Assembly (NCBI GenBank): GCA_051294905.1
Contig: CM119372.1
Coordinates: 12,216,001 to 12,280,000 of the forward strand
Length of the DNA stretch: 64,000 nucleotides
Reading direction: 5' to 3'
From: Botryllus schlosseri
Taxonomy: Eukaryota
In this document: positions 24,201 to 64,000 of the stretch, piece after piece
Numbering within the stretch: position 1 is the first letter of the stretch
Layout: every line of letters starts with the position of its first letter
Made by a program: the position numbers and the translations under genes
Notes under the pieces: model-generated
Told to the model about the DNA's origin: nothing
The model's database searches: none
What the model saw: only the letters and a program-made list of their open reading frames with translations

Positions 24201-27200
24201 GATGTCATATTTTGTGATACGATGGTTGATATACGATGTTCTTTCCAATTCTCTACTAGTTGCTGACGATTACCCCTGACGGTTGTCTGCCGAAAATATT
24301 CGGGTTCATTTAAATATGAATATACTATTCCATTGTATATTGAAGTTCTGTACCTCCAAGAAGCTCTTCTAATTGTAGTATAAACAGAAATTCTTAAGCT
24401 GGTTGTCTACCCACTTGACTTCATTCTCGTTTCAAGCACTTTGTGAAACCGAAACGGTTTTTGAATCCGCCAAAATCCACACAAAAAGTCCGTCATGTAG
24501 CCTACTTATCCGTGGCATTTAAAGTTGAATGGTTTTTCAGTGGTAACATGTCCCGCCATCGAAACTCCAGACGACATGGACATGACGTGCACCAACGCCT
24601 ACTACTACTCGTCGGTATGCCATTTCACGTGCAACGACGGGCTGCACATGATCGGCCCTTCAGAGGTGTATTGCGGTGACCCGGACAGAACCGGCCAAGG
24701 AAAGTGGACCACAAAGCTACCGACCTGTACTCAAAGTGAGATTGTTGTTACAAATATCATAGTCAGTAATGAAGTACTATAAGTACTCAAGTACTTTTAC
24801 CTCTACTGGAGTAGCAATGCTGACTCCTTTGACGACCTCTGGTCTCGGCGAGGTGTTTCAGCCGCTGAAATATTTCCAGCCTTGATATGCTTACCCGAAT
24901 ACACGGCACCGGAATTCGGAAAGTCAACCTGCACCGATGCAAATAAGGCAGGGTCGCAGTGTACTTTCCGATGTGATCAAGGCTACAAATTGGTCGGCAG
25001 CGGTGATATCTTGTGTCAGGACGCGGACAGGGCCGGGCAGGTTACCTGGAGTGACCCCCCTCCGGTATGTGAAGGTTGGTAGAAACGATTTGTTGAAAGG
25101 TAACTTTGTTCTCAAGTGTACTGTATCTACGGTTCAGATTGCCCCGGTGGGTATTGTGCAAAGGATATTATTGTGCTGTTGGATGGCTCTGGCAGTGTCA
25201 CCATTGATGACCTGAAGCATGTGAGAAAATCCATTGCTGATATCCTGGAAGGTGTGCAAGGGGAGATTGATTCTGGATCGACACGAGTAAGGTTTTGATT
25301 TACAAGGCTATATCTGCACCTTCCATGTCCATTGGCATATGTATATCATGAGTCGGTGCTGCATAAACATCAAGGACAAAATATACAACGTCCTATTCCT
25401 ACTTGAAGTTCAAGCCATTAGCAAAACAATCATCATTTTATTAGCATCTTCAATGATTCTAGGTAACACGAGAATTCTCTACATTCCAGAGATAGGAGGA
25501 TTCAATACGAATTGGATTTAATTATAATGACAGAGCTTGCAACTGCGAGCCATGCACAGTGAAAAAAAGTAGCAGAAGATAACATAGATGGGATGTTGGA
25601 CATGGACAAGCGGTGAAAATGAAGTTTTAGGTGTTGGTGGACTATCAATATGTCAGAGCGTGGGCTGGTAATCTCAAGTGCAGACTAGTATATGGAAAGT
25701 TCTTCATTTCATTATATCCATCTACAACACATGCAGTCACATCAATACCCGATTACTCTTTTAGTATCAAGTTGTATTACTGTTGTATCAAATTACTAGT
25801 ATCTTTTAGTATCTTGATGTGACAGTACGAATCTTTCTTTGAATCATGTGTTTCAGGTGGGTCTTATTCAGTATGGTGGCACATCTACTTTCATATGCTC
25901 GTCCGATGCCGTCTCCCTTGAGTATGAGGTATAGTACTGCATTTTCATTGTGACATTGTATCGGTTTCCAGAATGAATGTAAGAGAGGAATTGCAGTTGT
26001 GGTAATCTACCATGATCTGGGGTCGAGTCAATGTGATTCAAATGCAGCTGGTCTAGGATCACTCAATCTATATTAGAGAGCTTATTTATTTCGTCTAAAT
26101 AGAAGACAATGTTCATAATCATGCAAGTCATGAAATCACATCATGTTTGAATCGCCAAGCTGACATTAGCTATTACTGTCATGGAGAACCGATATGACTA
26201 AAGTCTTCAAGGGCGTAGTCACCCATACATATTTCGATGAATTAATCTATCTTCTTCCCTGAATTAAGTAGGAAGATATAACGAGGAAAGAAACGAACAC
26301 AAAAATGAGGAAATATTAGAGAGTAACAGAAAAATGATGGATGTAGTTTCTGTTTTTGCCAATGTGAGCTTGTAATATCAATAAGATAATTGAGAATTTT
26401 ACAATCACCTCTACTTGCCTTAAATAGTTTAATACTAGTCGACTCAATTTTAATTATTTTGAATTTTTAGGTGCAATTAGAACTTGGCTACTATCCTTTT
26501 CGTGAAGTGAAGGATGCGATATCAGAGTTACCGAGATTCGGTCATTGCACCGCCACCGGTCAAGCGATTTCGGTGGTGGCGAAACATTTTCAAACCTTGG
26601 GTAGAGACAACGCGCATTGGGTCTTGGTACTCCTAACCGATGGGCGGTCGAATGACGATGTCGCCGGACCCGCCCAGAAAGCTAAAGATTCGGGTGTGTT
26701 AAAGTAGAATGCACGTGTGCTTTCGTTTTTCAAGATTCCTTAGGTTATTTTCTATGAATTTCGGACTCAATATGGAGAATAATACTAGGAATACCAGGTA
26801 GATTTTAGATCGATCAACCTTACTTGGTCGTTTCGACATTCTCTGTTCATTACATCGCACTGAGTCGTCTCTATCACAATCAAAACAATAGCAGTGGTCA
26901 GTCGCAAGTATGTTCTACTTTTACGAAGTCATCAGGTAGGTTTTGCTTGAAACTGAATCACGCTACCTCCAGTGGTAATGATTTTAGTCTACTTCTACTT
27001 ACCGTTTTCAGTTTTTTAGGCAAAGCTCGGCCTAGAATACTTATTTTCTTTACTTAATTGTAAATCGCTACCTTTACTTCAATAGAAATTTACGAATCTA
27101 CGGTGGTACTAACAATGCTTACTTTTACAACCTCTGTGTATCGAAAATCGACTAAAACATCAAACATGTTTGCAAGCATTTAATCAATTTTAGGAATCAA

Positions 27201-27492
27201 GATCGTTTCAATTGGCATTGGTTCATTCAATACGGACCAACTCATGGCGTATTCCAGCAAGATTTTCACTACAAAGGAATACAGTGATCTTGCAAAACTC
27301 GTGGTCGACGTCCAGAGTGCGATCACCTCTTTGGACAGCGAACCCATCAACTCGTCTGAATCATGTAAGTCAAATGGAAATTGTTCCAATGCTGAAATTG
27401 CGTAATTTTCTTCCTTAGTTTACAGGAATCGGCTTGCTTCAGCTATCTTCATCACGGCGCATCTTATGAGAAGATGCTTTTTGCGCTGTTGA
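290..27492 (+). CDS. Multi-CCP(sushi)/VWA extracellular protein, 5' end outside window: >=15 CCP - VWA (degenerate MIDAS) - 3 CCP - VWA (intact MIDAS); ~1620 aa in window
   Basis: Hand-assembled AG/GT-bounded, phase-compatible exons. CCP: 290-487, 1188-1394, 3194-3400, 4124-4318, 6145-6351, 7251-7451, 9807-10007, 10901-11101, 12211-12411, 14006-14200, 14261-14458, 15649-15846, 16712-16921, 17859-18038, 20484-20684. VWA1: 21500-21711, 21773-21995, 22395-22544. CCP: 23315-23509, 24541-24735, 24880-25074. VWA2: 25138-25286, 25857-25928, 26471-26693, 27194-27364. Putative last exon 27419-27492. CCP exons show a C..C..GSxCxFxCxxG(Y/F)..C..W..PxC pattern. VWA2 has DIIVLLDGSGS, VGLIQYG, LVLLTDG, GIKIVSIGIG. 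The final exon is uncertain: reading through the last intron also stops near 27404. Confidence 0.9.
1487..2378. mobile_element. Non-autonomous DNA transposon (Tc1/mariner/pogo-like, TA ends) with internal ~125-bp tandem duplication
   Basis: TACCGTAATTTTCC at 1487 and GGAAAATTACGGTA ending 2378; repeated subterminal GGGTGCGTATTATACATGG; internal direct repeats at ~1934-2057 and ~2058-2190. Confidence 0.8.
5160..5935 (+). mobile_element. Two tandem 3' fragments of an L2/CR1-type LINE
   Basis: ORF 5447-5677 (HKYSTR..SIKYAGPQLWNSISPAIQQLSGMSSFKSK) resembles the ORF2 C-terminus of L2/CR1-group LINEs; the shared 3' UTR CGCCTAGG..GGTGGGTGTC..CGACACCTTCC..CATTGTATCG occurs twice. Confidence 0.7.
6835..6988 (-). 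mobile_element. tRNA-derived SINE, 5' part
   Basis: Reverse complement aligns to the copies at 20.8k and 58.0k; A box TAGCGTAATGG and B box GATTCGATCCC. Confidence 0.75.
7586..9557. mobile_element. Non-autonomous hAT-type element (1972 bp)
   Basis: TIRs CAGGGCTGTGGAGTC / GACTCCACAGCCCTG; perfect 8-bp TSD CTTTTATC (7578-7585, 9558-9565); subterminal GGAGTC repeats. Confidence 0.92.
11428..11926. mobile_element. Palindromic (foldback) MITE with TTAA TSD, Kolobok-like termini
   Basis: AGGGGCACT..AGTGCCCCT flanked by TTAA on both sides; ~220-bp near-perfect inverted arms around a ~33-nt loop. Confidence 0.88.
12796..13364. mobile_element. MITE with ~48-bp TIRs and TA TSD
   Basis: CTATACGGCCGTAAACCAAACTTTACGCTGATT.GTCGAGAGACAATG and its reverse complement at 13317-13364, each flanked by TA. 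Confidence 0.85.
13414..13740 (-). mobile_element. Penelope-like retroelement remnant (GIY-YIG endonuclease C-terminal part)
   Basis: RVKQHIPK..PIGQH..YNDNMFTVIARGRSLFYLKVLESTIIQLTKPVLSRQKDF; homologous to ORF 23931-24170. Confidence 0.7.
16205..16515. mobile_element. Penelope-like terminal (pLTR) fragments in inverted arrangement
   Basis: 16205-16395 is the reverse complement of ~24180-24370, which lies just 3' of the GIY-YIG ORF; a second partial copy lies on + at 16449-16510. Confidence 0.65.
18368..19841. mobile_element. Non-autonomous hAT (Charlie/Buster-like) element containing a nested element
   Basis: CAGTGGTTCCCAA..TTGGGAACCACTG; perfect TSD GTATAGAC. Confidence 0.92.
18434..19434. 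mobile_element. Nested hAT-type element
   Basis: TIRs CAGGACCGTAAC / GTTACGGTCCTG; TSD TTCCCCAC / TTCTCCAC (7/8); related fragments at 44240-44567 and 44645-44929. Confidence 0.8.
20027..20319. repeat. Tandem duplication, 2 x 147 bp
   Basis: AGTATCAAT..GGATCACGCCCC unit starts at 20027 and again at 20174. Confidence 0.9.
20800..21055 (+). mobile_element. tRNA-derived SINE, near full length, (TC)n tail
   Basis: A box TAGTGTAATGG, B box GGTTCAATCCC, body shared with two other copies, ends AATAAATCTGAACTCTCTCTCTC. Confidence 0.8.
22610..22895 (-). mobile_element. L2/CR1-like LINE 3' fragment
   Basis: Reverse complement of the 5650-5935 UTR (GATACAATGAAAAGATAGGAAGGTGTCGAAAC). Confidence 0.7.
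23890..24375 (+). mobile_element. Penelope-like retroelement 3' remnant (GIY-YIG C-terminus plus terminal repeat)
   Basis: SAIGEHLLDNSACTKNNRDNRFRVVGRGRSHFHLSALKSTFIKIHHPRLCQQKEFVYHL, followed by a segment repeated at 16.2-16.5k. Confidence 0.72.
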
Positions 27493-27992: not shown

Positions 27993-28229
27993 CAGAGGTG
28001 GTCAGTAACGAAGTACTACTTTGTGAAGTACTTGAAGTAGATTTTGCCTACTCACACTACTTTTTAAGTAGTTATGATTTTAGACTACTTCTACTTGACA
28101 GTTTTCAGTTTTGTAGGCAAAAATAAGCGTAGAATACCTACTTACTTGTGAACCACCACTTCTACTCGAGTAGAAATACCGGCGTTACTTCTACTTGAGT
28201 AGCGGTGGTGACTACTTTGACCACCTCTG
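27993..28229. mobile_element. hAT-type MITE, CAGAGGTGGTC family (237 bp)
   Basis: TIRs CAGAGGTGGTC / GACCACCTCTG; perfect TSD GTCGTGAG; CTACTT/AAGTAG subterminal repeats. Confidence 0.92.
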
Positions 28230-28370
28230 GTCGTGAGACCATAGCAATTTACATCGTAGCTTCTCAAAGCTTAGTCTTCATGCCAGCTGTGTTGTAAATT
28301 GCTATGGTCAGACGTTTCCATAGAGAACCGCCTGAATCCGACCACTGAATAGTGAATATAGACGATTGAG

Positions 28371-29635
28371 CAGAGGTGGTCAAAGTAGTCAAGAAAGCTA
28401 CTCATGTGGAAGTAGCGAAGAAAAAATCTACTCAAGTACGAGTAGAAGTAATTCTTCCATAAGTCAACTAAAACTACTTGAAGTAGAAGTAGAATTGACT
28501 GACTTTAAATTTACTCAAGTTAGTAAGTAGTTTTGAAAATAGTTTTAATTCGATCGTTGGCATGGACTGTCAAAAGCTGTAAATTGAGCTATGCGAAAGG
28601 TGCAGAGAGCTTGATCCGCATTGATGCATCCCAGGGGGTATCAATTTTCGACAGAATAAGCATTCTTTCGCATCATAGGATGCAAATTATAGTATTGATA
28701 TAAAAATGCAATACTAACCCTTTTTTACTAGGACACCCCGTTTTAGAGAACATCATGGTATGGCGCCCTGCCCCATATTATGAGACCCCAAGATAAGACG
28801 ACGAGCAAAACGGAGAAGTTGTATCGGAGACGGTTTCAACACTGCGCGTTTAGTATACGTTAATAACAAATGTTGTGGATCGTAAAATTCATATTTAGTG
28901 TAGCTTTACTTTCGGAAGATAGCGGCATTGATTACTACACTTGCTTTTATGCATCAACCAACATGTATGTTCTGCAGACAATAGAACTGAAAGTGATTAG
29001 AACTTAGAGTATGATACTCGGAATTGCACGTGGAATACAAATACTACTTATAAAAAGAGGAAAAAATATTTCGTGCTTTTTGTCCATAAAGCTTCAAAGG
29101 TGTAACGTTAAAAAAAGCCGGATTTTCCAGATTAGAAGGAGACGTCATGGGCTGCTAGATTACGATATGATAGGTAATTGCTAGTTTGCGAAACGGTAGT
29201 TTCAAACGTTATGGTGGGCCATATTTACTGTGATGAAATATTTGATATGTGCGACAATGTGGTGCGAGTTGAACCGAGCAATCCGGTACCTAAATTATAT
29301 TCACGACACTTTCATGAAAATGTATCGGTCACTAAATAACTGATGTGCGCAAAGCGCAACAAAATTTCTGGGCTTTACTTGACTTTTATGAATATTAAAT
29401 GTTGGTACTCCATGAAAACAGCTCCGAAATTCGTCAGGCTATCTGTCGCATTGGGGGATTAAACTACTTCTACTTGACAAACTGAAAATAGCGAAAAGTA
29501 AAGTAAATAGGTCACAAAATATTACGAAGTAGAAGTAGAGAAAATCAGATCGACTTGAGTAAGTACCAGAAGTAGAGGAAAACTACTTGAGTACTTCCGA
29601 AAAGTAGAAGTATACTTCGTTACCGACCACCTCTG
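28371..29635. mobile_element. hAT-type element, CAGAGGTGGTC family (1265 bp), opposite orientation to its neighbour
   Basis: Same TIRs; perfect TSD CGATTGAG. Eroded relatives at ~10.3-10.7k, 21.05-21.4k, 23.6k, 24.76-24.84k, 26.9-27.1k, 42.85-43.3k, 45.28-45.49k, 51.9k and 62.84k. Confidence 0.92.
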
Positions 29636-30649: not shown

Positions 30650-33600
30650 ATGTCAATAAATGCCAGCAGTGGGAGTAGATCGTCGCTGGTGCATTCTGGT
30701 GACAGTGAGCCTCAGCCCAAGAAAATTCGCCTTGGAACTGATAAAAGTGAACGACAAAACAAATCCCCATTATTCAGCCTTGTAAAATGGAGAAAGAATC
30801 GCAAAGTGGGAAATGAAACCGACACTGCCGTTGATTATTCGAAAAAGACTCAACGTAATGGAACATTTATGCGCCCGACAAGCGATAGATCATTGCACAA
30901 CAACAATCACGAAAGACACGAAGCCTCTCCGACAATGGACAGAAAGCAACCGCAGCCTGCTTCGAAAAAGTATTGGTTTTCGAAAACAGAGACCAAACTC
31001 AATGTGAATCGATCGGAATCAACAAAACTGTTATATTTTGGATTTTTATTACCTGCTTTGGCACTTCATCCAAAGTCATTAGAAGAGGCGAGTATTTGAA
31101 TTTTTGTATTTTTCTCATGAATACCAGTGCATTTCTGTGTGGTTAAACATATTTCCACCTACTGATTTGTCCATCGCAATGCTAACTATGGCTGCTTACA
31201 GACTAGTTGTTTATATCCTTCATCCACTTTTGATAACCAATGTGGTGTTGTCAGTATTATTATTCTGTTCTAATCGATTGCTTGTAGGGCTATATTCAGT
31301 TTTACGACATGTGGCTTAATTGTTGGCATTCCCACCTCAAAAATAGGGTCCGTTCATTCACTATTATGAAATTAAGATAAGATTTTGTGATGAAAATCCG
31401 AACATCTTTTTTAAAATTCGTCGCATCTATTGTTTTCAATCATTGCCTGGTCCGTCTGCAATCATTGTGAAAACAGGCAATCGATATTTTCCTTTTTAAA
31501 AAGTGCGACACACCAAAATATGACGAAGATTTCAAGCTCCGCCTTGCCGCTGCTCACATCAACGACGCCATCAACAGCCGTGGCAAATTCGGCCGGGCCA
31601 GGTCACTCATGAAATCAGACTATGTACAAAGGTAACCGTCGTGATTGCTGATTTTTGGCATTATTCATATCGTTGTTACGGGGATATCAAAATTGAACAC
31701 CACTTTTCTTCAGGTGTTATAAAATCATTTCGAGTCCGTATTGGGAGTATCTTATTTATTTGTTTATCGCGCTGCACTGCTTCATGGCTTTTTGGGAGCA
31801 GTCTCCCACTCCAACACCTATCAGACAACAATGGTAAGTCTTTGATGGAATTCGAGTGTGTCGTAACTACCTGCAGTGATTCATATTGTTTAGGCTTGGC
31901 GATTGGGTCATGAATGCATCTGTTCTGGTTATCGATGCCTTGTGCACAATGATTTATATCATCGACATTATTCTGTGGATCGGGTTTTTGTCATGGTCGC
32001 ATTTTTGGTCTGCGAAAGAAAACTTTTGGATTCGGTAAGATTTGTGGAATTTTTTAGCAGTGTGCTTCTTGGCTTTGAGCTAGTTTTTTACTATCTTTCT
32101 CCTTTCAGGTTTAGACTTATCTTGCTTCCCAGTTTAGCCGAGTTGCGTAGCCAATCGTTGAATTTATTCTTTGAGAATGCTTTGGTGTTTGCTTGAATAG
32201 CGTGCACTAACATAGTTCAATTCTTGCTCTGTGTAGGGTGGAGTTCGTGTTTACTGCAATGTTCATTGTAGACTATGTGATCCTGGTGCTGCAGAGGGCA
32301 TTGGGAGAGGTAAGTGATGCATGCAGTTTTTAGCGGTGATGTTGGTTGACCAGTTTTTGTAGCCATGATGTATCTCCGGTTCCGGCTAAGCCGTGAAGCG
32401 ACAGCTCAAAGTCTGGTCAGCACCTTTGTGCTCTGTATATAGGCTCTGTAAATGTATAAAATATATTCTGCTGTTAACATTCATGATGAAGCTTTTCTAA
32501 TTGTCAATTTTGGGTGAAATGTCACTTCGACTAGTATAGTTGTTCATGCTTCTCAGTATGAAATCGAACAGTTTGTCTTTACGTGAGATGAGCGAAATTC
32601 TCTTAATACACTTGCTGTCGAGTCTTGTGTTATAGGCAGGCATTACCAATTGTTCCCACCAGCAAAAATATTAATTTTATTACTAAACTGAATAATAATA
32701 TCTTTTAGACAAAATAATTCAATTAAAACCAGTTTGGCTAAAATTTGAAGCTATTTTCGGAAGAGATCGTTTCCCTAACTCTAACACTTTTTTATTAGCG
32801 TTTAATCGCACCATTTCGATGTTTACGTGCCGCGATGCTACTCTGCAAATCAAAGAATGTTTCTCATATCTTCAAAGTATTACTCAGCATTATGTCCAGA
32901 CTGGGCAAGGTTTGGTAAATTTACATTGTGCCGCTAGAACACTCATCTCACTGCAACAAATCAACAGGTGTTCGCTATAATCTTAATATTTATCTTCACA
33001 TTTGCATCCATTGGATTACACCTTTACATGTTGGACTATCATGAAGTTAGCCAGGATTGTCCCGATCCTAATCAAACGTGAGTAAATTTGATTGGATTGA
33101 TATCATGTATTGGTTTCAAATATTGATTGTAGGGTTCAAGTGTTTAATTTTTCAAATTCATTGATATGTTAAACTAGCAATTCAAGCACACTCAAGATAA
33201 GTAAGGAAGGCATGCACCTGTTTTTTCAGGCCACCTGATCATATAAAAGTAGGACGTTACTCATTGATAGTTCTAATTTATCAAAATACTTCAACTTACA
33301 TTCTCTTGAAGACAAGGTAATTCTAGTGGCTAGACCTACTTCTCCGTTACATTATTGTCATTGTATATGTTTAAAATTCCACGGCAATTTGCTGCCTATT
33401 AATGTTTAGGCCATTACATATACTACCCTATAGAAGGAATCTAGGAAAGAATAAGGAGATTCAGATTCCTTTGCCTTGGTCCAATATCTCTTTTGTGGAA
33501 TCTGACCTTATAAATCATTATCCTGATTTATTGTATGCTTTGAGGTGGTAGCTATACACTAAGCAAGGCCGTCGGTAAACTGACCATTGAAATCTCACAG

Positions 33601-36600
33601 CAGGGTCCTTCTATTGACATTTCGATGCTTACACAGTGGTATTGATTAGTAATTCACTCTGAGACAGATACGGTACCACAAATATTTACTTATTAAAAAT
33701 TTCTTTATCTTTTATGTTTTCTCAGAAACTGTACCAGCGTCTACTCTGGGTAAGAATTCTATTTGGATTGAAAATTGTGTTTCAATCTAGCTGGAATTTT
33801 TTGAGTCAAAGCTTTCCAAATGATTAATGATATCAGTTCATCTTTGATTGCAAAATAAAGTTGTTATTGCATTGTTGCTAGTAACCCCTGAATGTTTGTT
33901 TTTAAACAGCGCTTTCGACAATATTGCGATTGCCAGTGTTCACATGTTCGTATTGATGTCGACTGAAAATTACCCGGTAAGTATATACTAATATCTTGTA
34001 GCCACCCATGGAGGGAGATATTTCGGAAATTGTCATAGTGGCATAAAAAACTATTTTGGCATAGTGAAACGTTTGTTTGTTTCCAGAATCGTTGCAATAT
34101 TGCTTGTGCAATGCTATCCACACGTTTAATTGGTTTTCGCCGTTTGCAAGTAAAATTTATATGCTCAATATCATAAGCCAGTTATGCAAAATGAAATCTA
34201 CAGTACAGAACTGCCGGAAATATGAATGGTCAGTAAGTCCGGAGGTTACCACATATACCAATGTTTAAATCTGCTCAGAATAAAAAATGTTCAGGTCAAC
34301 ATGACCCTTATATATTGTTCTGGTGAGAGTTTCCATGTGTTAAACCTCAACGTTATGGACTTTACGACAAGTATTTGAACATTTCCAAATATTGACATTT
34401 CATGCTCGAGGCATATTAAATACACGCACTAACAATCTTAGCAGAGTTGAACATTTTTTCACGGAGTTGATGTCCCCAAAATATTCTTGAGTAATACTAT
34501 CTTTGTTGTCTTAATTGAACCAGGACTGGAAAGTGGAACAAATTTTAAGCAGCTCCCGTCCATTTATCATAAACTAGAAATTAATTTCAACTAACCAAGT
34601 TCAAATTTTGACTCCAAGGCTACTATGTGGGGACTCTGACTCTAACTAACAACTCGCACTGTTTCATATTGGTAATTCAGGCCCACACTTCCCAAATCAA
34701 ACTTCCACCCAAACTAGCCATTGTAAAGTGAGTAAAAACCTATCGATTCTCATACGAATTAGTAGTTCTGGTCTGAAGACCAAAACCCAAATGGATAGAC
34801 TATTAACATGCCGGTACAAGGTATTACAATATTCGAAATATGAATGAATTCCATTACAGTGAACGATAGCATGTCGATGTTTATCTTTATCAAAAATTAC
34901 TCCAACTTTTGCTGCATTTTGCAGGACATCATCATCCCGGCCTTTTTCAAGAGCACTGCGAATTTCTTTTACTTTATGTTTTATCTGTATGCCGGCGTAT
35001 TTTTTCTGACCGCTATTCTCCTGGCTATTATAGTCGAAAGCTATTGGGAGTACAGCAAGAAGCATGTCAAAATGGAAAGGCTGTAAGTAGGACATTGGCC
35101 GTCTATTCCGCTAAAACGTTTTAGTGTTGTTGATTTAATATAGATTGGACTCTTGTTGATTTAGGATTTTATGATCCTTCCAGAATGTTGTTGTCACAAA
35201 ATTTCTTGATCTGGCAGACTTATATACTGGATCAACATCTGCAGTTAGCCATACCTTTGTAACACCGAATTCATCATTCGCCTCTTGTGTTCACAGGAGG
35301 CAGAGAGAAGAATTAATAAGAGCTTGGAATCTTCTAGACTTGAATGGCACGGGTTATCTTAGCGTGTATGATCCCAAACTTTTAAAACTATTTGCACTGC
35401 TTAAGCCCAAGGTAAGTTATCTTATAGTATTCGTCTCCACAATGGAGTCACGGCCATTTGGAACAAAAATGATGAACATCTGTATTCTCTTTTGAGGATC
35501 AAAGTCTTTCCTTTAAATTTGTCACTTCACGAAAGATGTCGTGAGCTTGACGTCAAATTCTTGACAAATGGTTCAAGAGAAATTGAATATATAAGGACAT
35601 GACATTCCAGCAGAATGGAGAAAATATGTGAAAATTCTCACGCCCTTTTAATAATACTCCTATTGTGATATGTATAAGACAAATTCCTGCTAGAGAATTG
35701 AAATTGACACCAAACAACTGAATGCACGTCTTTGTGTGCTAAATGTATGACAAGATAAACTTGTAATATTATGGACGAAGTCAAAAGTTTTCTAATTTGA
35801 TTTGAAACTTCGCTTCAGGCATTACATAACGTTGATAATAAAACATGAAGTGTCAGCCATGTTGTTTGTCCTCGTATTTGAAGTTTACCATGTCAGCATA
35901 GCGCTCAAGAGACGGGAATGATAATATTTGTGTCTTTCAATATTACGATCTTGTTTTGACAAAACTTTGCGGATGAGTCACGAATCACTGTGTCGTCACA
36001 TTATCAACTCAATATTTACAGTTCTTCTGTCAATTCAGAACACGGAAGATCAAATCACTCAATTGATTGAGTATATGGGCGAAGGCAATGAGGACATTGA
36101 CACGTACGATTGGACGACCAGACTCGTTCAAACTCTAAGCATCGAGTTTGAAAACGAGACCAACGATGATATATCGTCCAACGGTTCCGTCGGTTACTCC
36201 AGACTTAGGTCATGCTGCAGTAGAATTATTCATGTAAGTAAATTTACAAGTAATCACCCTGTATTGGCAATCCCGTTATGAGGTATATCTTACTAAATTT
36301 CGAAACATTAAATTCCATGAAAACACAAATTTTTCAGGCCAATGGAATCGGGATGGCCATTCTCGTACTTATTCTTCTTCACAGGTATGTGTGGTGATGC
36401 AATAACTTTTGCGAGACTATGCAATATGATTAACTAGTCATCTAAGATTTGTTTCTACATCTACATACATTACTTCAGTTGCTTTGTGTCAATCCTAGTT
36501 CAACTTCATACGTTACGCTCAAATTTTTAAAGCTATATCGCTACGCATTTGAATTATTTTATACTCTGATACAGTATCATACCCTTCCCCAAAACAAAAA

Positions 36601-39600
36601 GTATGCGGATAGTGCTTTTTTGTGGCACTAATATTCATCTTGGATTTGATTTGAAAGCGCAATCAGATAGTTTTTATGAGTGTTGAAAAAGCCTCAAAGT
36701 CTGTCGAAACATTTTACTTGTGCATCATCAATCATCTATTTTTGCATGAGTACACAAGGTACAAAGTACAAGGTACAAGGTACAAGTACAAAGCTATCAC
36801 TGAAGGTACGCATCGACCAGTATTACTTTAGGCAACTGAAAAGTAATGAACATTAAAAGAAAGAAATGACTTTGCAACAGTGTGTCTGGTGCATCTCATC
36901 GCGCATTGCCTGTTTTGAATGGATGGAATTTCTGGTAAAAGCTCGTTTATGGTTTACGACATTCGTATCTGATCCGTTCAAACACATAACACCCGTAAAT
37001 CTACTAAGCTATGAATACTACATTAGGAAGGAGATGAGATTCTAAACATGTCTCTTACATGTGTTTTTGTTTTCAGTATATTCTTCTGCTTAATGTGGAG
37101 CGGCATAAACAATAACACCCAACTTGCTTTCCAAGCTACGCGGACAGCGATAGTATTTGTGTTTGTAGTGGAACTGGTATTGAGAATTTCTGCGGACGGT
37201 GCAAAGTTATTGAATATTCTCGATATACTCGACATCTCCATGATTGTGATTGCTGTCGTGGGCAACTTTACGTGGTGAGCTTAAATTTTATTTTATCAGT
37301 CCTCTAATCTGATTAAGGTTCCGTGACTGATATATAACAATTATTCTAAGAAATTTCAATCTTTCATGGATATATTTGGTGGAAGTCATCATAAAATGCG
37401 ACACAATTATCTGATTCGCAGGTGTTGAAATGGGTCGAGATCTCATTTATTCTCAATTTATTATTATTATATCTGGCCTAAGATTTTCAAGGACATCATA
37501 CATTAAACTTGAGAACCCATCACTATTCACGACTCATATACTTTGCTCCTCGATATATCTTCTGTTACTTTTCTGTTACTTTTCCGTTACTTCCGGTGTG
37601 TATGACTCTCATTTACATATTCTAGGCCAGTGCTGGTGCTTGATTGAAAGAATACTACAAGCCGTTATCATACACTTCTAGTCAAGTAACAGGTCTTAAT
37701 AATGATTTCAGATGTCAAACAATCATTTTCACAAATATGTATTCCTGAGTGTAGCTCATGAATTGTTGTGATATGTTTTCTCGCAAATTTGCATATTTCT
37801 AGGTACATTTTGTGGTTCGGTACTACGATTCAAAATTTGCAATTGTATCTCGGAGCATGTGTGGTGACTTCCTCTCTTGCGGTCATCGCCAGACTACTGT
37901 TCAATTCCGAACAAGCTCGGTCCGCGGTTCATATCTTACGCAACATATATCCCGTCATGTTCGATCTCATCCTGCTGGTCGTAATAATCATATACTTCTA
38001 CGCCATTCTCGGATTGGAAATATTTCAAGATAAGTATGTGGCGCACAGTCGTCGATTGGAACATTTAATTTTAAACACACATTCTATCGCGCAGCACACT
38101 GGAAAAAAGCAATGCTACGGGCTTCGAGGGAAGTTATGTGCAATATGGCTGCGGCGTCGGGTTTCAAACATTTGGATGCGCTCTCATGATTGTATTTCAA
38201 ATCGTGACTACTAACGATTGGCACCAAATCATGCTAGGCGCAATGATAGACGCCGGTGAGGTTGAAGAAAATATGTCACTCGAGTTGACAATGTCTAACA
38301 GGCATTCTGTGTTTGTCTGACAGGCTGGGCCTCTGCGTTTTACTTCATATCGTGCTTTCTGATCATTGATATGATTGTGATGAACCTGTTTGTTGCGATA
38401 TCAATTGAAGCGTATAAAAAGTTGGCGAGGGACGACAAGGCCATTACTACAAAATCGGAGACTGCGCCTGATTTCGAAAGCATGGACGAGAATCTTCCTG
38501 ACGGAGAGTCAGTCGCCAGTAATAATATGGCGGCCGGCAGTCGAATGAGTAAGGAGAAATCGGTAAGTATCTTTTTGCTGTGTGCGGACTAGTTTTAAAC
38601 AATAAAATGTAAGTGGTAGCGACCGCTATGTTACGTTATTTTTGTGTGACACTTCTGCATATGTCTCCGTGTGTTATCATCCAGCTGACATGCTTACATG
38701 ATTGAATTTCAACAATTTAATGCTTCTGTAGACCAACTTATGTGATTTTATCAATATTTTCGAGTCGAGGACCTTCTCCTAATTTTCATTGCTGTAATGT
38801 CACACGTTGCCTTGAATTATTGAAATTTAACTACAAGTGTATCAATGATTTTCATTGTTATATATACATTATCATCAAACATTGCAAAATTCTCGATGGC
38901 CCCCAGTTTGCGAATGCGAGCGTCTCGAAAAATGAACAATGAGTGAGAAAACCACTCACTCTTTCAATATCCCCAGGAACGTTCGCTGGGCGAGGCCGCC
39001 AAAGACGCTTTCACCGGAATCTTTGCTAGCACCCGAGCCAGGAAATTCTCCAATCCTCCGACGGTTCCGAATACCGTCGGCATGCAGTTCGGCAGGACCG
39101 GACCGAGAGGCTCTATCGCGATCACGAGCGTGCATACTGACACAAGCGATGACAATGACTCTGTCGATGATACGATACTCAGCCTTGGGAGACTGTCCGG
39201 TATGTGTCGAATGGAATTTATCCGACTACACAGCTTTTGGTTATGCATTATCTGTCGTGTTTAGGCTCGCAGAGATCGAGGAATCGCAATTTCCGGGTTT
39301 CGTCTGATTCATCGTCTTCTAGGAAGAGGGGAAGCCTACCGGATGGGGCATGGCCATCCCAACCCAGGTAATTTCAGCGCCTGTACTCGCTTGCTATTTC
39401 CCGAGGGAAGAAATGGTGGTGGCGGTCCTAACTAGTATCTATACATATTCCGCTATGTTATTTATTTTTATTTTTTAATCTGGAATAAAAAGTGTCTAAA
39501 ATATTAGTGTGTCTGTTAGGGTTTGGACCTCAAGAAATCCCCAACCCGGAATTCCTGGGTTTTAAACAGTTTTTCTGATCCTGATCCTGGAATTGATTCT

Positions 39601-42600
39601 AATAAAATCCATGGATTGCTAGAGTTCATTTACAAACGCTGATGTAGCGCCATAGTACTTTTTTTGTGAAATTGACAAGTAATATAATATATAAATGTAA
39701 TTTCGGTTGCGCGCATATATTCCTACTTTGCTAAGTCACATCGTCACTTCCAGTCAAATCTTATGTTTGACGAATCAATAAATGTCTCTCTGTCTGAAAT
39801 AAAAATGTGTATCTAGCTCGGGGGTTCTCAAAGAGTGGGCCACAAGAGCATTTGAGGTGGGCCACAGAGCTATTTGAAAAATTTTAGAAATAATCTAAGT
39901 TTAGTAATATTTGTTGTGTTATTAACTAAAAAATAAATTCATATTAGTTGATTATACGTTGGCTACTTTAAGCTTTTTATCCGACTCCGATGAGACGCAG
40001 TGGTAGGTATGGAGTCCACATCTCAAGTCGAAAATGGGAGGCAGAAACAGCGGCTTTTTCCACTGGCTATAACTACCTATGGCTAACAGCAACTAAAATA
40101 ATTTCGCGTATACAATACCTGGAAGGTAATGCTGAAGTAACCAATTATTCCGGCAGGGTCATAATGTCGTATGCAGTTGAATGAGGTGTATACGTGCAAT
40201 AAACTCGGAATGAAGTGTGATTGATTTACTGTACTTCGGCAAGTCGTATTATTGTAAGTTAAAAATGGCCACAACTGCAAATTATTAGCAACTTCTGGTG
40301 GAGGTATACTGCACCACCGCAACGAATAGTAATGAATTGAGGATTCAGCGGAGCGCATTAATATTTGGAGTTTGTTTAAATTGCATGCCTGGAAATCAAT
40401 GTACATAATGGAAGAGTCACGTGGATTGATAGTATCACTGGATTGAATATACCGACATCGCAACTTCAGTTGGTTCAGTACGTGACATAAAATGTACATT
40501 GTACAGCATGATTATACTATTCCTCTCAATAGTGGAACTAAAATCCCCATTACACAGTGTATGCGGGAATCCGATCATTGTGTTTCGCGAAGCGAATGGA
40601 GCAGCGGACGATCATAAAATACTCAGAAGTTTTAGCAGAGCCGTAACTGCCGCACCCACACCCTCAATCGGGGGAGCTAGAAGGGGCCCAAGATTATTTC
40701 GTTGGTCGTTTGTTGAAGATATTCATTCAACTTGAAAATTTTCGTCCCGACATGTTCATATTTTAATTTCATTAGTCAATAAGGAGAAAAATGCGCATAT
40801 TTTAGAGAAATAGGCATATCGCATCACGCATTGAACAGGATTATGACTTTCAGATTAGAGGTGGGCCACAGCACATTTTCAAACCGGAAAATGGGCCACG
40901 GCGAAGAAAGGGCTGAGAACCCCTGATCTAGCTGAATAGAATTATTATCCATTGTCCGGGTCAGGATTTTGTATTGAAATCAGTCCGGAATGTGACAGTC
41001 TGTATTTTATTAATTATAATATATTTTGAATATTGACGATGGTCAGTGGTCATCGTTGATTTGCAGCCGGCCCAAAACAGTTCCTATCCGTTTTACCGAA
41101 TGTGTAAATTACTAAACTTTCATAAACAAATGGTCCTGCTGAGACGAGTCCCCTTCGCTTTTATACAGCTCTGAACAGACGGTACCCAGAGCGGGACTGG
41201 GGATGGATAGGAGAGAAAAATTCAAAGCAAGAAGCGAACGCCTAAAGAGAGAGAGAAAAGAGAAACAAAGGAAGCAGCAAGCCGAAGAAGAAGCGACAAG
41301 CACAAACACCTTGAACGTTCCGTCTCCGAAACTGAGCATATCCGGTAACAGAATAGGATTGATATTTCAGATTGTGTCTGTTTGTTTGATCGCGCATTAA
41401 TTGCGCTCAATCCATCACGAAAGTGTGCTATAAAGATCTTAATGTAGATAATCCTCACAATTGACTTTGAAACAGTTTTATCTGGTACGGTTGTCTCTAT
41501 TATCAACTAAAACAGCTAGTATTTGTATAATATTTGTATATATCTATTTGTATATATGACAGCGTCGAAAAGACAAGAGTCACCACAAAATATCACTGTC
41601 ACTCACACCGTACTTGATGAAATATGGAAGACAATTTTAGTTTGTAACTTAATTCAAACTCTCCCAGAGCCTGGTGTAGATCCGAACAGGGGCAAGTGAA
41701 TTGAAGGAGCATTATTATTCTCACTCAATAATATTACCACTCTACTTGATGACTAGCTCTATGATGAATCTACTCAACTGAGGTAAATAAAGTCATTTCA
41801 GTTCAGTTAAGTTTAATATTAGTTTCATCATTTCAAGACACCGCAAGATTGCGATAAAATGAAAAGATAGGAAGGAGTTAAAACAACTTGCCGTAGTCTC
41901 TCGATCAAACAGCCACGTTTGCCTAGAGTCCTAGAACATGTAAATAAGAGGCATGAACTAAATTAATATCAACCGAAGATAACATAAAAAGGTAGACCAA
42001 TGGAAATGACGTGGAACATATCGGATACTGCTAATTATTTGCCTTCATATCACAAGATACGAATTGGACTGGGATTTTTGGCATTATTTCATCACAGAAT
42101 GGCAAGCGAATCCGTGTTGCAATGCACTTTACCATACTTTTCTCATCTCAGATGTTGTAAAATTGAAACGTGTGGTGAAAATCCTGAAACCCTACGACGC
42201 CAAAACGTCGGCAGAAATGAACGTGAAGGAAGGTCAAACGTTTTACGTCTCGGAAACTATGGGGGACATGTATCACGGGCCCAACGGATGGTTTCCGAAA
42301 AAAGTGGCACTCGACGTCGGCATGCAAGCGTCGGACGACCCATTTACAGAAGATATGAATGCTCCCGTTAAGAAAAAGAAATCCGTCAAATTTGTCAACT
42401 TCCAGGTAGAATCAGTACTGAAGTGCTTTTGAATAGTGGGTTGATATGCGTTGGTTTTCAAGGTCGAAAACGAAGTACTTCCGAAAGATCCGGGCACTCC
42501 TCCGATGGGTAGAGCGTCGCCATTAACGGGTATGTACGAATAGGTTCAGATATATGTATGAAGTTTTTCAATTTTCATACCAACCACCAACACGCTCTCA

Positions 42601-45600
42601 GGTTCGCAATTGCCGCATCGGCCGTCTGTAGGGAAGATGAGAATGAGGAAAGACGGCAACACTTGGAGAAGGGACATTCACGGCGAAATGACCGTGATGA
42701 ATAAGCAAGAGGTCATAAACTCTTTACTAGATCATGTTTATTAGCTTTTACTTTGCATACAATTCCGCCAACCGCTTTATGCATTTGTCTGTGGAAACGC
42801 TGCGTTGCTGAGACCACACAATGTGATAACAGATGTCTTACGCAGACGTGGTAAAAGTATTCAGAGTTGCTGCTCATTGCTCAAGTAGAAATAACCCTGT
42901 AAATTTCTACTCAATTTTTGATATATTGAGCAATATCTAAGATATGTCAAAACTACTTCAATTGGAAGGAGAAAATGAAAGATTTGAAAAGCAGCCTGAT
43001 AAGTAGCTTTGAAGTGTAGGTTTGATTTTGGATTCGCATACTTTTAGCAGTTGATCAGAGGTGACTAAATTCCAAATTACAATATGTATCTTCGCGACTC
43101 GTGTAAAATCTTCCATAATATATTAAGTTACTATGATACAGGGACTACTTCATATACAAAAGACACGCAAACTTATCTCAAAATCATTTCCTACTTTTTA
43201 AAATCCAAATTGTAAAAACTAAGTAGTTTTCCGTGGATGCTGTTCCAGTAGAATTGGTAGTAGTGTATAAACATAATCACTCGAGTCTTTGGATTTCACA
43301 ATTTTGGTTCCAATAAGTTATAGCTGACATGAATGGCTTCGAGAAAGTGAATGTTAGGTAGGCTTACCATACGTCCTCCTTTAACAGGATTTGTCCTCCT
43401 TTGTGAGGAAATTGAAAATTTTCACTGAGAGCGCCCAAATGTTCTCCTTTTCTGCAATTCGCCCGCCTTTACAGCTAGTGCTAGACCAGTGGTTCTTAAC
43501 CTTGCCCCCAGCGCCCCCCAGGGGGCGCTGGCGATGTTGAAGGGGGGCGGAAACGCTCAGGGGGCGATATGGGGGGCGCTGGGCTCAGGGGGGCGGTATG
43601 GGGGGCGCTGGAGAAAAATGGCTTCGCAGTAGATGATGTGGTGATAGGACATATCCTAAATGAGTATTCAGAGCAAATTCACACCGAAAACTTCGTTACA
43701 TATAGCCTTCAAAATACATATAGGTTTAATTGTCCATGGGCGCCTAAATGACTGACAGAGAATGTTCCTGTCTTGGCAATCTGAACCCCAGAAGACGAAT
43801 TCCATCTGGCAGGGAAAAATTATATGTCAGTGAAGAAATACCAATCTGAAATGGTGTGCGTCTTTTAGTTTAGTACGATTGGGCGACAGGGATATTCCTG
43901 TTGGGCGATATCCCCGTTGAGCGATTCTATATTTTTTGATATTGCAGACAGGGGGTCACGAAATAACATCATGCAACGAGGTCATACCAACGGGTTCACC
44001 CGCCCGAATATGTTTAATTATTGGTAACGGGCCCTACAGTTTCCAAGAAACCTCACAATGTTCGCTTTAAGTTTTGATGAGTCTGCGCACACTCAACAAC
44101 TCACTGCGCTGACCCTTGAACAACAGTGCGTAACGACTAAAAAAAGGTAATAACTCCGGATTTGTTGTGCGCAACGTAGATTTTCTGTGCGCAGAGACCG
44201 TGTCAGCACTGCGCACGTGCGCAGCTTAGAGGGACCATTGCACCTAACTCAGCTCTACCGGTAAATAAATGTGTTTACGTGAGCAGAGAGAGGATAAAAA
44301 TTGATCTCAATTTACATGCAATTCCCGATGATATTGACCAATTCAATCATTAATTAGTGAAATTTTTCGCACTTCGCGCGACTAGGCGAGAATAGCTCCC
44401 TCAGTAAATGGACACCCAATGTAGATACCTAATAGGCTATCAGCGGACAGCCTAATGGAGGTCTGGGAGCGAAGTCCCCCGGAAGTTTGGTTTATCACCC
44501 GATGGGGGCCCAGGACCAACGTTTTATGTTTGGGGAGGGGGGCTGACGAAGTGCTGTTACGGCCCTGGTAACGAATAATTGTACCTGCGGGAACGCCCGA
44601 ATATGTTTAATTATTAATTACGTGCAACTTATTTTCCTATACAACAGCTCACTCAGTGTTACTGGTAAATCTGATTACGTGGGCTGAGAGGATAAAAAGT
44701 TTATAGCGACTTATAAATGTAATTACCATGCATTATGGAAAATATGCAATTACCATGCATTATAGCAAATTTTGGTACCTAGGGCGACCAGGCCACACAA
44801 ACTTTGCTGACCACCAAAATCACGATATGGGGTTCGTGGGGGCGAAGCCCTCAAAAGTTCGGTTTATCACGCTATGGGTGCGCAAGGCAATCGTTTTTAG
44901 GGGGGTTGACGAAGTGCTGTTACGGCCCTCCCTCTTACTCATTGTCTTTATTACATTCCTTACAATATGAAGTTGAGGGGGGCGCTGGAGCACAATAATT
45001 TTTGAAAGGGGGCGCTGGACGAAAAAAGGTTAAGAACCACTGTGCTAGACTAATGGATAGGGTGGACTGAAAATCGGCATAAATGAGGCGAAATAGGTAA
45101 TGCGGACGTTCGAGCGAGTCATTCGGGAGTCGAATCATAGTGATGACTTTTTTTTTAGTCAACACAAGATTTCCAGTGAATATTTCAAAATCAGCTGTTT
45201 TCGTTTTCCTAAAACTATCTATGAAAATGTCCTCCTTAACGGATCCCCATATATGGTGACCCTTATGTTTACAAAGTACAGAGGTGGTCAGTAGCTTTTC
45301 GAAGGACTTCAAGTAGATTTTACCTAGTCACACTACTTTCTCAGTTGGATATTATTTTAGACTAATTCTACTTTTTCGTGACAGTTTTCAGTTTTTTAGG
45401 CAAAACCAAGCCTTAAATACTTACTTTTTTTCTTACTTGCATATTTCTACTTCTACTTGAGTACCGATGGTTACGACTTTCGCTAACTCTGTCAAAGATC
45501 CATGCCTTGGTTTTAATCCATGTTATTCCAATCTAAATCACCCTGAAAACCATTTCAGGCACAAGAGCTTGCCAAGCGATTACGAGGAGGGAAGATGAAC

Positions 45601-47658
45601 TATGAACGCCACCAGTCTAGGCTTAACCTCATGAAGTCCAATGTCAGCCGACTGAGTCTTCTAAACACCAGAAGGTAAGCCCACCCTCGTTGTCTTGTGT
45701 ATTTATAGTTGTTGATCTTTTCATTCTCGGTACGCTTATGTTGATGCTATCTTTACTATCTCCTGTTTGATCTGTCAATATTTCTATTCCACCACCAGAC
45801 AGCATTTGCAAATTATCTTTTTATACCTTTGACACAATCAATCTGTTTCCAGGTCAAACGATGAAATCTCACAGCAAATAATCGAGGAGAGGGAAGAGGA
45901 ATCTACGCCTCCATTGCCAATTTTGAAAGTGTCGGAGGCACAATCATCATCGGAACCGAGCGTAGCAAGCAATGATGATACAGACGCAAGTACTCAAAGT
46001 CAGTGTTTTTATGCTATTCAGTCGGAGGAAATCAATGTGTAATCTCGGATAATATTTCTTCAATACAATATTGGTACGTAGAGCAGACATGAATCACTTC
46101 ACACAAGTAGAAAATTGGTGCTTTGGAACATGCATACTGCTCATATCAGGGGCGGGCAACATACGGCCCACGGGGTTCTGAGCAGCCCGAAGAGAGTTTC
46201 TACACTGAAAGCGAATTATAATCTGAAAGTATTGACAAATTTTATGCGTCTCAATCCAAGTTTGCCAACCGGATAAACTACTTGTTCTGTTCGGGTCTAC
46301 ATACATTTGTGAGCAAACATTTTCGACCATGAATAATAAACAAGACAAGGCTGCGTTCCAATATAACGTGCAGTCTTTACTAAGGGTTTCTACATCCGAC
46401 ATGCAGCCACAGTTCAACGAACTTGTTGACAACTTTCATCGACCACAAATGTCTGATTGACTTCAACAGCTATTGAAGTACATTTGGTTAATAAATTCAC
46501 TCAATACTGTTTTTGGTCTATATCCTTTAAACTTAAAGTTTACATTGAATACGTTTTATTCCTTGCATAGGTGTATAAATACGCAATTAATGTATCGATT
46601 CTGTAATCCGGCCCGCCGAGCACTTCAGGTTCCCATATCAGGCCCGCCGACCGGAGAAGTTGCCCGCCCCTGGCTTAAATGAATAGGTTTAGGTTTGGAA
46701 CAACTTCTGGAAATTATGAAACACAATGTCTGGAAATTATGAAACACTATTTCATGACTAATTTGAGATGCCTGACGATATGAAAAAGCTATACGATTCT
46801 CCAAGTTATTTTCCATCGCTGTGGCGTTATATATATATATTTTTCATCGCAGTATATCCGTGACTTCAATGCTGAAAATCAGTGTTCTGTTCACAAATAT
46901 AGGTTTGAGCTGTGTCCAGGGATTATACTAGTTTGATGCATGATACATCACAAAACTATCAATATCTGTCTATAAATTACTTAACATGTGATAATATTAA
47001 CTAAGGAAAGCTAGGTCAGGTGGGTGTCTGATTTCGAAGACTGCTCCGAGTCGTTTCGACACCTTCCTATGTTTCATTGTATCGCAGTCTTGTGGTGTAT
47101 TAAAATGATGAAATTGTTAGCAATAAATTGAATTGAGTTGAGCATATCTCTCGTTTTGCAGCTACTTAGGAATTGGTGCGATTCTTTTTTATTTTACCGA
47201 CACAAATCTTCAGATAACGACACTTTGACCGTTCCCAAATCGTCGGGAAGGAATAAAGCCAAGCCAAAAGGCAACGGCGAAATCCCTAGCTGGTTGAAAA
47301 ATTTCGTGGCGAGCAACGGAGTAGAAGTGCAGGACGACTTGAAATTCGACGAAAGCAAACTGAAATCTCCTGCCGCCTCCGACGACGATGAGTATGCAGC
47401 CATATCTTTAAAAAATTTGATCACCAAATCGGAGTTTCCGTGTATCTTCACAGGTATAACGAAATACTGGACTGTTCGAAAAATCCTGGTACTTCCTCAC
47501 CTATGGAGATTTCACCAGTTCAAGATGATCCTGCAAATGATCAAGATAATGATTCGGGAACTGCATCTAATGGCTTAAAGCGTAACACTTCGGTGGATAG
47601 AATGTCCGTCCATGATATTGATGAAGATAATGTCAATTCTCTTAACTCAGTGACCTGA
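30650..47658 (+). CDS. Divergent two-pore channel (TPC)-like cation channel, 2x6TM with EF-hand linker and C-terminal SH3-like domain, ~1358 aa
   Basis: 27 exons with consistent phases, total 4077 nt ending in TGA: 30650-31003, 31477-31631, 31714-31833, 31894-32034, 32237-32309, 32799-32909, 32968-33077, 33726-33749, 33910-33976, 34925-35082, 35297-35411, 36039-36233, 36338-36384, 37077-37274, 37803-38033, 38095-38255, 38324-38562, 38977-39199, 39265-39367, 41169-41344, 42152-42405, 42463-42529, 42602-42711, 45559-45674, 45853-45998, 47214-47391, 47454-47658. TPC hallmarks: pre-S1 LAAAHINDAINSR, S4-I RLIAPFRCLRAAMLL, pore-I FDNIAIASVHMFVLMSTENYPDIIIPAF, pore-II FQIVTTNDWHQIM, S6-II IVMNLFVAISIEAY. 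The start ATG and first donor are the least certain parts. Confidence 0.88.
36750..36793. repeat. Short GTACAA(G) tandem repeat
   Basis: gtacacaaggtacaaagtacaaggtacaaggtacaagtacaaag. Confidence 0.8.
39819..40925. mobile_element. Non-autonomous hAT-type element (1107 bp)
   Basis: CGGGGGTTCTCA..TGAGAACCCCTG; perfect TSD ATCTAGCT; subterminal GTGGGCCAC repeats. Confidence 0.88.
41815..42030 (-). mobile_element. L2/CR1-like LINE 3' fragment
   Basis: TTTCATCATTTCAAGACACCGCAAGATTGCGATAAAATGAAAAGATAGGAAGG matches the same family. Confidence 0.65.
43359..45264. mobile_element. TAGGGTTACCA-family element interrupted by a younger hAT insertion
   Basis: TAGGCTTACCATACGTCCTCC..ATATGGTGACCCT; GTCCTC subterminal repeats as in 53051-53390; TSD eroded. 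Confidence 0.6.
43487..45042. mobile_element. Non-autonomous hAT (Charlie/Buster-like) element with nested fragments
   Basis: CAGTGGTTCTTAACCTT..AAGGTTAAGAACCACTG; perfect TSD TGCTAGAC; GGGGGCG subterminal repeats. Confidence 0.92.
46147..46672 (+). mobile_element. hAT deletion derivative retaining transposase C-terminus
   Basis: TIRs CAGGGGCGGGCAAC / GTTGCCCGCCCCTG, TSD 6/8; the + frame from ~46287 reads LFGSTYICEQTFSTMNNK..LRVSTSDMQPQFNELV (hAT dimerisation-type motif). Confidence 0.85.
47010..47135 (+). mobile_element. L2/CR1-like LINE 3' end fragment
   Basis: GGTGGGTGTCTGAT..GTCGTTTCGACACCTTCCTAT..CATTGTATCGCAGTCTTGTGGTG..AATAAA. Confidence 0.7.
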
Positions 47659-63854: not shown

Positions 63855-64000
63855 GTATGTTTGTTTGGTTGTGCATTTCGTAGGTGACAGGCGATAATAA
63901 ACTTAAATATTGCTTTCAAGAATGCATAAAAACATACATAAAAATATGAATGTACTATTAACAGCCCTGTTCAAGTTCTGCACCACCAATAAGTTATTCA

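Follow-up and report, generated by a model that had tools for sequence, protein, structure and literature searches.

The window considered here is a 64,000-nucleotide stretch of contig CM119372.1 of Botryllus schlosseri (all positions are those within this stretch), and it carries on its plus strand a gene for a two-domain ion channel. The reading preferred here, to which a probability of roughly 0.6 may be attached, is that the product belongs to a distinct family standing far from the two-pore channels TPC1, TPC2 and TPC3, probably forms a TPC-like dimer, and would be a Ca2+-permeable, weakly selective channel that is predicted to be voltage-independent. Judged from the sequences, this is a family with a conserved acidic filter, distinct from TPC1-3 and mis-annotated as Cav, Nav or TPCN1; on the same footing, a Ca2+ permeability higher than that of TPC2 is plausible and voltage gating is unlikely. 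The reading builds on a gene structure, a family, a residue register and a pattern of conservation that were observed directly.

The original prediction placed two acidic filter motifs in the gene, and both are found where it put them. The first, S-T-E-N-Y-P, ends exon 33910-33976 and is followed by a 948-nt GT-AG intron, after which D-I-I continues at 34925, as borne out both by the reading frame and by assembled contigs; the second, T-T-N-D-W, lies at 38207-38221 in the same spliced frame as filter I, with the Asp codon GAT at 38216-38218 (the domain-I filter Glu being encoded by GAA, 33965-33967). One stop-free frame runs across 16 GT-AG exons, from 31714 to 39199, and run X3 has contigs spanning each of the 15 listed joints between 31085 and 38095, the 33975/34924 joint that splits filter I among them, while in a contig of run X4 the loose end at that same joint runs into the next exon. 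In runs X1 and X2, single contigs start at the filter-II exon, cross six more joints and extend past the SH3 exon at 42152-42405. These contigs look like spliced transcripts because their joints excise introns at GT-AG ends; the RNA nature of runs X1-X4 is itself a guess only. Raw RNA runs X16 and X20, sampled at 6/100 and 13/100, gave zero depth on the channel exons, a figure that has no bearing on expression.

Both motifs recur in the orthologues of Styela, Ciona and Clavelina, and the second also in Phallusia (a fragment). Two trivial explanations were considered and rejected: a chance or mis-spliced filter motif is ruled out by the bridging contigs together with the orthologues, and a broken Cav fragment by the presence of the SH3 exon on the filter-II contig together with the conserved architecture. 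As for the TPC-type two-domain architecture that had been proposed, it is upheld by two Ion_trans stretches and an EF-hand match in the Styela protein, by the helices of structural models and by TPC matches in Foldseek.

The domain-I Glu falls, as proposed, on the Ala/Ser of TPC filter I and, in a single-domain alignment with Cav2 and Cav3, on the EEEE column of Cav channels, i.e. the site that PMC6259924 (drawn on, like the other papers cited here, for excerpts of its text) names high-field-strength, its other named site being the Ca site, with an outer site at +4. The domain-II Asp is displaced by one residue: it directly follows the EEEE column and matches the Asp that Cav domain II has at its 'Ca site' (+1). 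Of the acidic filter as first described, then, the Glu holds its place and the Asp does not stand in the same ring, and the picture of a dimer presenting two Glu and two Asp as one four-acid ring has to give way to a register of E/N/E/N at the centre with N/D/N/D above it. Neither of the neutral filters of TPC1/TPC2/TPC3 (T-T-A-N and V-V-N-N-W; reference motifs in PMC11844439) is found in the Botryllus family, and nor are the four domains and four central acids of Cav, there being only two domains, with Asn or Ser centrally in domain II.

Residue counts were made over 47 relatives, excluding the Botryllus sequence; their rows are redundant (several are amphioxus isoforms). The Glu is present in 42 of the 43 rows that cover its position, the sole exception being a Lingula paralogue. 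At the central position of domain II there is Ser in 37 relatives, Asn in 7 and some other residue in 3, and at +1 there is Asn in 40, Asp in 6 and Gly in 1; five of the rows with Asp are Styela, Ciona, Clavelina, Phallusia and one unnamed fragment, while the sixth is a misaligned, broken model. The +4 position of filter II is acidic in 44 of the 47 (Styela, like Botryllus, has Gln), and Thr occupies the two positions preceding the filter-II centre in 44/47 and 42/47 rows. The conservation anticipated in orthologues was accordingly found for the Glu, and for the Asp it fails beyond the ascidians. Such a distribution identifies the domain-I Glu as an ancient mark of the family, and the domain-II Asp is most likely a late ascidian addition, because it is nearly confined to ascidians while 40/47 relatives carry Asn. 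The Lingula exception, a second copy in that animal (P0040), has lost the domain-I Glu, the filter-II Asn and the outer acid alike, and offers a natural neutral-filter control.

Family membership and deeper relationships

A search with the pore-II exon returned orthologues in Styela clava (89% identity over 53 amino acids) and Phallusia, both automatically named Cav. When the core of the Styela protein was used as the query, 65 proteins were returned: the query itself, 40 at E <= 1e-53 (30-68% identity), one partial match at 1.6e-13, and a weak remainder consisting mostly of Cav. The named taxa in the strong group are sponges, cnidarians, a brachiopod, nemerteans, an annelid, echinoderms, amphioxus and ascidians, to which is added one choanoflagellate, Choanoeca flexa; a search with the latter yielded three more relatives, two of them named (Microstomoeca roanoka and Salpingoeca urceolata). 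Their records carry names such as Cav, Nav, TPCN1 or uncharacterised; the genes of Ciona and sea urchin are LOC100179610 and LOC115929441. Of 36 members aligned, 30 have a Pfam SH3_2 match, and the ESM Atlas holds a 70-protein cluster with Ion_trans plus SH3; in the unicellular members no SH3 was seen, and four of the five have the Trp-Arg-Arg/Gln tail motif common to animals. In Botryllus this tail motif (42602-42711) precedes a predicted helix and is possibly a partner-binding site. The taxonomic range comes from a word-index search only, in which the family was not seen in vertebrates, arthropods, molluscs or nematodes, an absence that is to be taken as apparent. The literature searched, a body of text with most subscription papers outside its coverage, yielded no paper describing a fourth animal TPC or one with an SH3 domain; the available parts of bioRxiv 10.1101/181578, PMC3194816 and PMC5150636 contain nothing bearing on an SH3-tailed family, and PMC12749960 sorts channels into human families, with no SH3 or two-domain passage in the part available.

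Similarity to the known TPCs is low. The Styela protein, in an isoform lacking IS1-S4, matches mouse TPC1 at E=1.2e-9, TPC2 at 5.4e-11, TPC3 at 2.6e-18 and AtTPC1 at 1.3e-23, as compared with 4.2e-198 for insect TPC1 against mouse TPC1, and orthologue-level similarity to any one TPC1-3 subtype is thus lacking. It might nevertheless be supposed that the gene is a very divergent TPC1 orthologue, replacing a TPC1 that the Botryllus genome seems to lack: no TPC1 was found there with an insect TPC1 query, which returned only a TPC3-like and a TPC2-like locus, and some records of the family are automatically named TPCN1. This is highly improbable, given that similarity to mouse TPC1 is so far below that of the insect protein and that a profile of the family scores TPC1 (7e-50), AtTPC1 (2e-49) and TPC3 (3e-48) alike; three TPC isoforms are moreover reported in sea urchin (PMC7312350), and these are presumed here to be TPC1-3. 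The same source gives six homologues in sponges, and its sponge and sea urchin counts may hide a member of the family. The TPC2-like and TPC3-like genes of Botryllus are separate loci with neutral filters, at G000:C13 ~5.63 Mb and G000:C11 ~14.52 Mb respectively, and in filter II of the TPC3-like gene Gln replaces the second Asn. The VVNNW codon pattern has 79 matches in the genome, a number below its control, so that it is useful only alongside other matches.

A tree of single domains was calculated from 36 rows, comprising among others seven animal and three choanoflagellate members of the family, with TPC1 represented by two insect sequences on long branches; TPC2, TPC3, plant TPC, TPCR, Nav, NALCN and CatSper, and the genome's own TPC2-like and TPC3-like proteins, lie outside it. 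Animals and choanoflagellates form one clade in each domain (support 95/92 and 99/94), and the family is sister to insect TPC1 in both (100/99 and 97/89) rather than grouping with Cav domains. The tree supports the family as a clade and does not support its deep placement, because key groups are absent and TPC1 is long-branched.

The original prediction went further, seeing in the gene a Cav-like filter of two Glu and two Asp that survives as an intermediate on the way to four-domain channels. The split that separates Cav DI/DIII from Cav DII/DIV (support 100/96) does run through the family as well, domain I falling on the former side and domain II on the latter; however, an odd/even grouping of this kind has been reported for all TPCs (PMC4278181). 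The Asp does match the Ca site of Cav DII, but it is almost exclusively ascidian; and while the family's branches are shorter than that of TPC1, and its profile gives Cav3 domain II some 100 bits, the tree pairs it (on thin sampling) with TPC1 in both domains and not with the Cav stem. The Glu may be ancestral, a matter that 36 rows cannot polarise. An evolutionary intermediate is therefore a quite unlikely interpretation.

A closer connection may exist with TPCR, defined in excerpts of PMC4278181 and PMC8490419 as a unicellular clade of TPCs with Cav-like filters and, according to parts of a 2026 review (PMC12839299), not found in animals. TPC homologues of Salpingoeca are described as carrying an acid, Glu or Asp, in the first or second domain (PMC4278181, PMC6259924, PMC12839299, PMC8490419). 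In the present family the domain-I Glu supplies an acid at the Cav filter position (the exact TPCR motifs being known by description only), and choanoflagellates are represented, forming a clade with the animals in the tree; Salpingoeca rosetta, Monosiga and the other species of the published TPCR set were not among the matches of the Styela or Choanoeca searches. That the family is the animal branch of protist TPCR is, on balance, slightly favoured. The fuller proposition must be put more tentatively, as it is rather less likely to hold in all its parts: that TPCR survives in animals, from sponges to ascidians, as a fourth, SH3-tailed, mis-annotated channel, voltage-independent and Ca2+-permeable, in which ascidians rebuilt the Ca site of Cav domain II.

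Permeation and gating

If, by analogy with solved TPCs (PMC12839299), the protein forms a dimer, its central ring would be Glu/Asn/Glu/Asn in ascidians and Glu/Ser/Glu/Ser in most non-ascidians; the ring above would be Asn/Asp/Asn/Asp in ascidians and all Asn outside them, and the outer ring would be Asp/Gln, or acid/acid in most other members. A dimer prediction with Styela residues 1-500 scored 0.09, a value that speaks neither for nor against dimerisation. A Ca2+-permeable, weakly selective channel is expected because two central Glu are combined with Thr-Thr before filter II: two central carboxylates, half the Cav number, together with Thr-Thr in place of Val-Val, would be predicted to abolish the Na+ preference of TPCs without attaining Cav-grade Ca2+ selectivity, and the ascidian Asp may contribute an extra Cav-like entry site. 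The double change V651T/V652T abolished the Na+ selectivity of TPC2 in simulation (PMC11844439).

There are a number of observations that count against this scheme. Filter I of solved TPCs lines the pore by backbone carbonyls (PMC6424560), and a change at Ala272 has only a subtle effect (PMC6424560, PMC11844439), because of which a Glu in filter I could matter little; the chief Na+ determinant of TPC2 is Asn653 (PMC6424560), and ascidians retain Asn at that position. One Lingula paralogue does without any filter acid, tree sampling is thin (only two, long-branched, insect TPC1 sequences) and the family rows are redundant. A model of the Styela isoform without IS1-S4 matched Nav1.7 best (Z 25.7, root-mean-square deviation 3.5, 379 residues aligned), and for this partial model Nav and Cav structures lead, with no TPC among the best 50 matches listed; the Choanoeca model, in contrast, with a mean predicted local distance difference test score (pLDDT) of 64 and high values in its core, has TPCs for all of the top 18 Foldseek matches listed. 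Two further points concern the EF-hands: none of the four ascidian rows has the Ca2+-ligand pattern in EF-hand 2, and a degenerate EF-hand 1 is found in the majority of the other animals as well as in Ciona and Clavelina.

Taken furthest, the first of these objections implies that the Glu is structural, hydrogen-bonding behind a wide filter I whose backbone carbonyls are >7 A apart, with selectivity set by filter II (PMC6424560); the channel would then be Na+-preferring or non-selective, and the ascidian Asp a minor tuning. The Asn that ascidians keep would suit such a channel well enough, but most members have Ser for Asn653 with Thr-Thr before it, changes of the sort that remove TPC2 Na+ selectivity in simulations (PMC11844439), and the Glu has been preserved at the exact Cav column from choanoflagellates to ascidians. 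A purely structural Glu is accordingly considered unlikely, though less so than the evolutionary intermediate discussed above.

Regarding gating, IIS4 contains a single Arg in 46 of 47 rows, and the positions 3, 6 and 9 residues ahead of it hold neither Arg nor Lys; this single Arg aligns with the last Arg of AtTPC1, and the R3-R5 voltage sensor of TPC1/TPC3 is missing. When the R3 Arg is lost, voltage dependence disappears (PMC6424560). In the IS4-S5 linker, the three basic positions of the insect TPC1 pattern R-R-x-x-R are basic in 6/32, 0/32 (all His) and 3/33 animal rows respectively, and the Botryllus triad is Ser, His, Lys, unlike the basic triad for phosphatidylinositol 3,5-bisphosphate (PI(3,5)P2) of TPC1/TPC2; the triad, which was placed on Lys203/204/207 of TPC2 (PMC6424560) by pattern, is partly kept in choanoflagellates, and a basic cluster after IS6 persists. 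Because IIS4 has only one Arg and the PI(3,5)P2-type linker is degenerate, gating is most likely chemical, the best guess being that the channel would respond to cytosolic Ca2+ by way of an EF-hand and to a partner that binds its SH3 domain or the helix of its tail. The EF-hand 2 ligand pattern is present in 21 of 35 animal rows as against 0/2 for TPC1; its failure in ascidians, together with the decay of EF-hand 1 elsewhere, means that Ca2+ gating is not universal. There appears to have been a switch between EF-hands: in Botryllus and Styela the ligands are kept in EF-hand 1 and lost from EF-hand 2, in most other animals it is the other way round, and in Ciona and Clavelina neither hand has kept them.

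It is also conceivable that the protein works at the plasma membrane or in cilia or flagella, or is a poorly conducting scaffold subunit, instead of being an endolysosomal channel. The SH3 tail would fit such a role, as would the absence of an acidic dileucine motif before S1 from the rows of Styela, Ciona, Clavelina and amphioxus (its occurrence elsewhere being scattered) and the fact that the named members are choanoflagellates and marine invertebrates. Such a spread of taxa loosely resembles that of CatSper. The main text of a sea-urchin flagellar proteome (PMC7024835), in the parts available and with the supplements outside the search, yielded no hits for TPC, two-pore or SH3, and a location of this kind is thought very unlikely to be the answer; it would in any case be compatible with the selectivity proposed here.

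Gene layout and neighbouring sequence

The features of the gene are collected in Table 1. Its first intron (31088-31503) is of the GC-AG type, with the joint bridged by contigs from two runs. For the last four exons there are 30 open combinations, and the boundaries given for them are approximate.

Table 1 Features of the channel gene in the window.
Feature	Position	Strand	Remarks
Whole channel gene	30650..~47658	+	2 x 6 transmembrane segments, EF-hand-type linker, SH3 domain, long tail; ~1350-1400 amino acids; start at the 5' end and final four exons are predictions only
First coding exon	30650..31087	+	ATG predicted; joint bridged in contigs of runs X2 and X3; frame and GC donor checked
Exons to IS4-S5 linker	31504-31631, 31714-31833, 31894-32034, 32237-32309, 32799-32909	+	Pre-S1, IS1-IS4, IS4-S5 linker
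IS5 exons	32968-33077, 33726-33749	+	IS5 and turret
Filter-I exon	33910-33976	+	Holds the pore helix plus filter I, whose Glu codon (33965-33967) is in the high-field-strength (EEEE) column
IS6 exon	34925-35082	+	Filter-I Asp (+4), followed by second pore helix and IS6
EF-hand 1 exon	35297-35411	+	Ligand pattern intact in Botryllus and Styela; Pfam EF-hand_7 E=0.0021, below cut-off
EF-hand 2 exon	36039-36233	+	Degenerate in 4 ascidian rows
Exons for IIS1-IIS3	36338-36384, 37077-37274	+	IIS1-IIS3
IIS4-IIS5 exon	37803-38033	+	IIS4 with single Arg, linker, IIS5
Filter-II exon	38095-38255	+	Turret, pore helix, filter II; Asn 38213-38215 (EEEE column), Asp 38216-38218 (+1), Gln at +4
IIS6 and proximal tail	38324-38562 (IIS6), 38977-39199, 39265-39367, 41169-41344	+	Proximal tail
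SH3 exon	42152-42405	+	On same X1/X2 contig as filter II; Pfam SH3_9 E=0.00074, below cut-off
Tail-motif exons	42463-42529, 42602-~42711	+	Conserved motif starting Trp-Arg-Arg, common to unicellular relatives
Four predicted 3' exons	~45559-45674, ~45853-45989, ~47214-47391, ~47454-47658 (stop)	+	First and third matched by Styela and Ciona (tblastn)

Elsewhere in the window, numerous exons in 270-18100 (+) encode a protein of Sushi (SCR) repeats whose loops are acidic, and 20250-27450 (+) holds exons with von Willebrand factor A and Sushi-like segments, which may be tandem paralogues or may belong to the last part of the gene upstream. The segments 28180-28420, 29480-29620, 39800-40950 and 43400-45300 contain repetitive elements that have inverted arms or very high contig depth and are probably miniature transposons, while 50200-63900 (+) contains exon-like frames of another gene, with no notable Pfam match.

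Comparison with known channels

Reviews (including PMC12839299, in the parts drawn on) list three animal TPCs with neutral filters and confine the acidic-filter TPCR to protists, a census that would have to be corrected if animals do have a fourth clade whose Glu is conserved at the Cav locus. Ciona, sea urchin, amphioxus and Nematostella, in which Ca2+ signals have so far been credited to TPC1-3 or Cav, would then have one more candidate pathway for Ca2+. The Ca2+ selectivity of a two-domain pore, and the share of each acid in it, become testable with natural variants that have two central Glu alone, these plus the extra Asp, or no filter acid (one Lingula paralogue); the ascidian Asp series would, if the reading is right, let the origin of Ca2+ selectivity in such a pore be studied in natural sequences.

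With TPC1/TPC2/TPC3 the family shares the 2 x 6 transmembrane fold, the EF-hand-type linker, the end of filter I (N-aromatic/N-P) and the Trp that ends filter II; it differs in having only ~21-23% identity, Glu for Ala and Thr-Thr-Ser/Asn for Val-Val-Asn in the filters, one Arg in IIS4, a linker whose basic triad is mostly lost, and an SH3 domain with a long tail. AtTPC1 is the best single-sequence match in the PDB and likewise has Ca2+-type EF-hand ligands and a non-canonical filter II, but it has no acid at either central filter position, is voltage-gated through IIS4 and lacks SH3. The diatom TPCL has Asp at the same third position of filter II (VND), a precedent for the ascidian change of N to D, although it represents a separate diatom clade, without EF-hands, and is vacuolar (excerpts of PMC11085791). 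TPCR, compared by description only, is likewise two-domain, occurs in choanoflagellates and has a Cav-like acid at the high-field-strength site; it is said not to occur in animals, whereas the Botryllus family is found in at least 8 animal phyla or subphyla and bears an SH3 tail. Finally, the domain-I Glu at the EEEE column, the domain-II Asp at +1 and the +4 acid of most members are all shared with Cav2/Cav3, which however have four domains, four central acids and a charged S4, whereas a chain of the family described here has two domains and its dimer would have two central acids.

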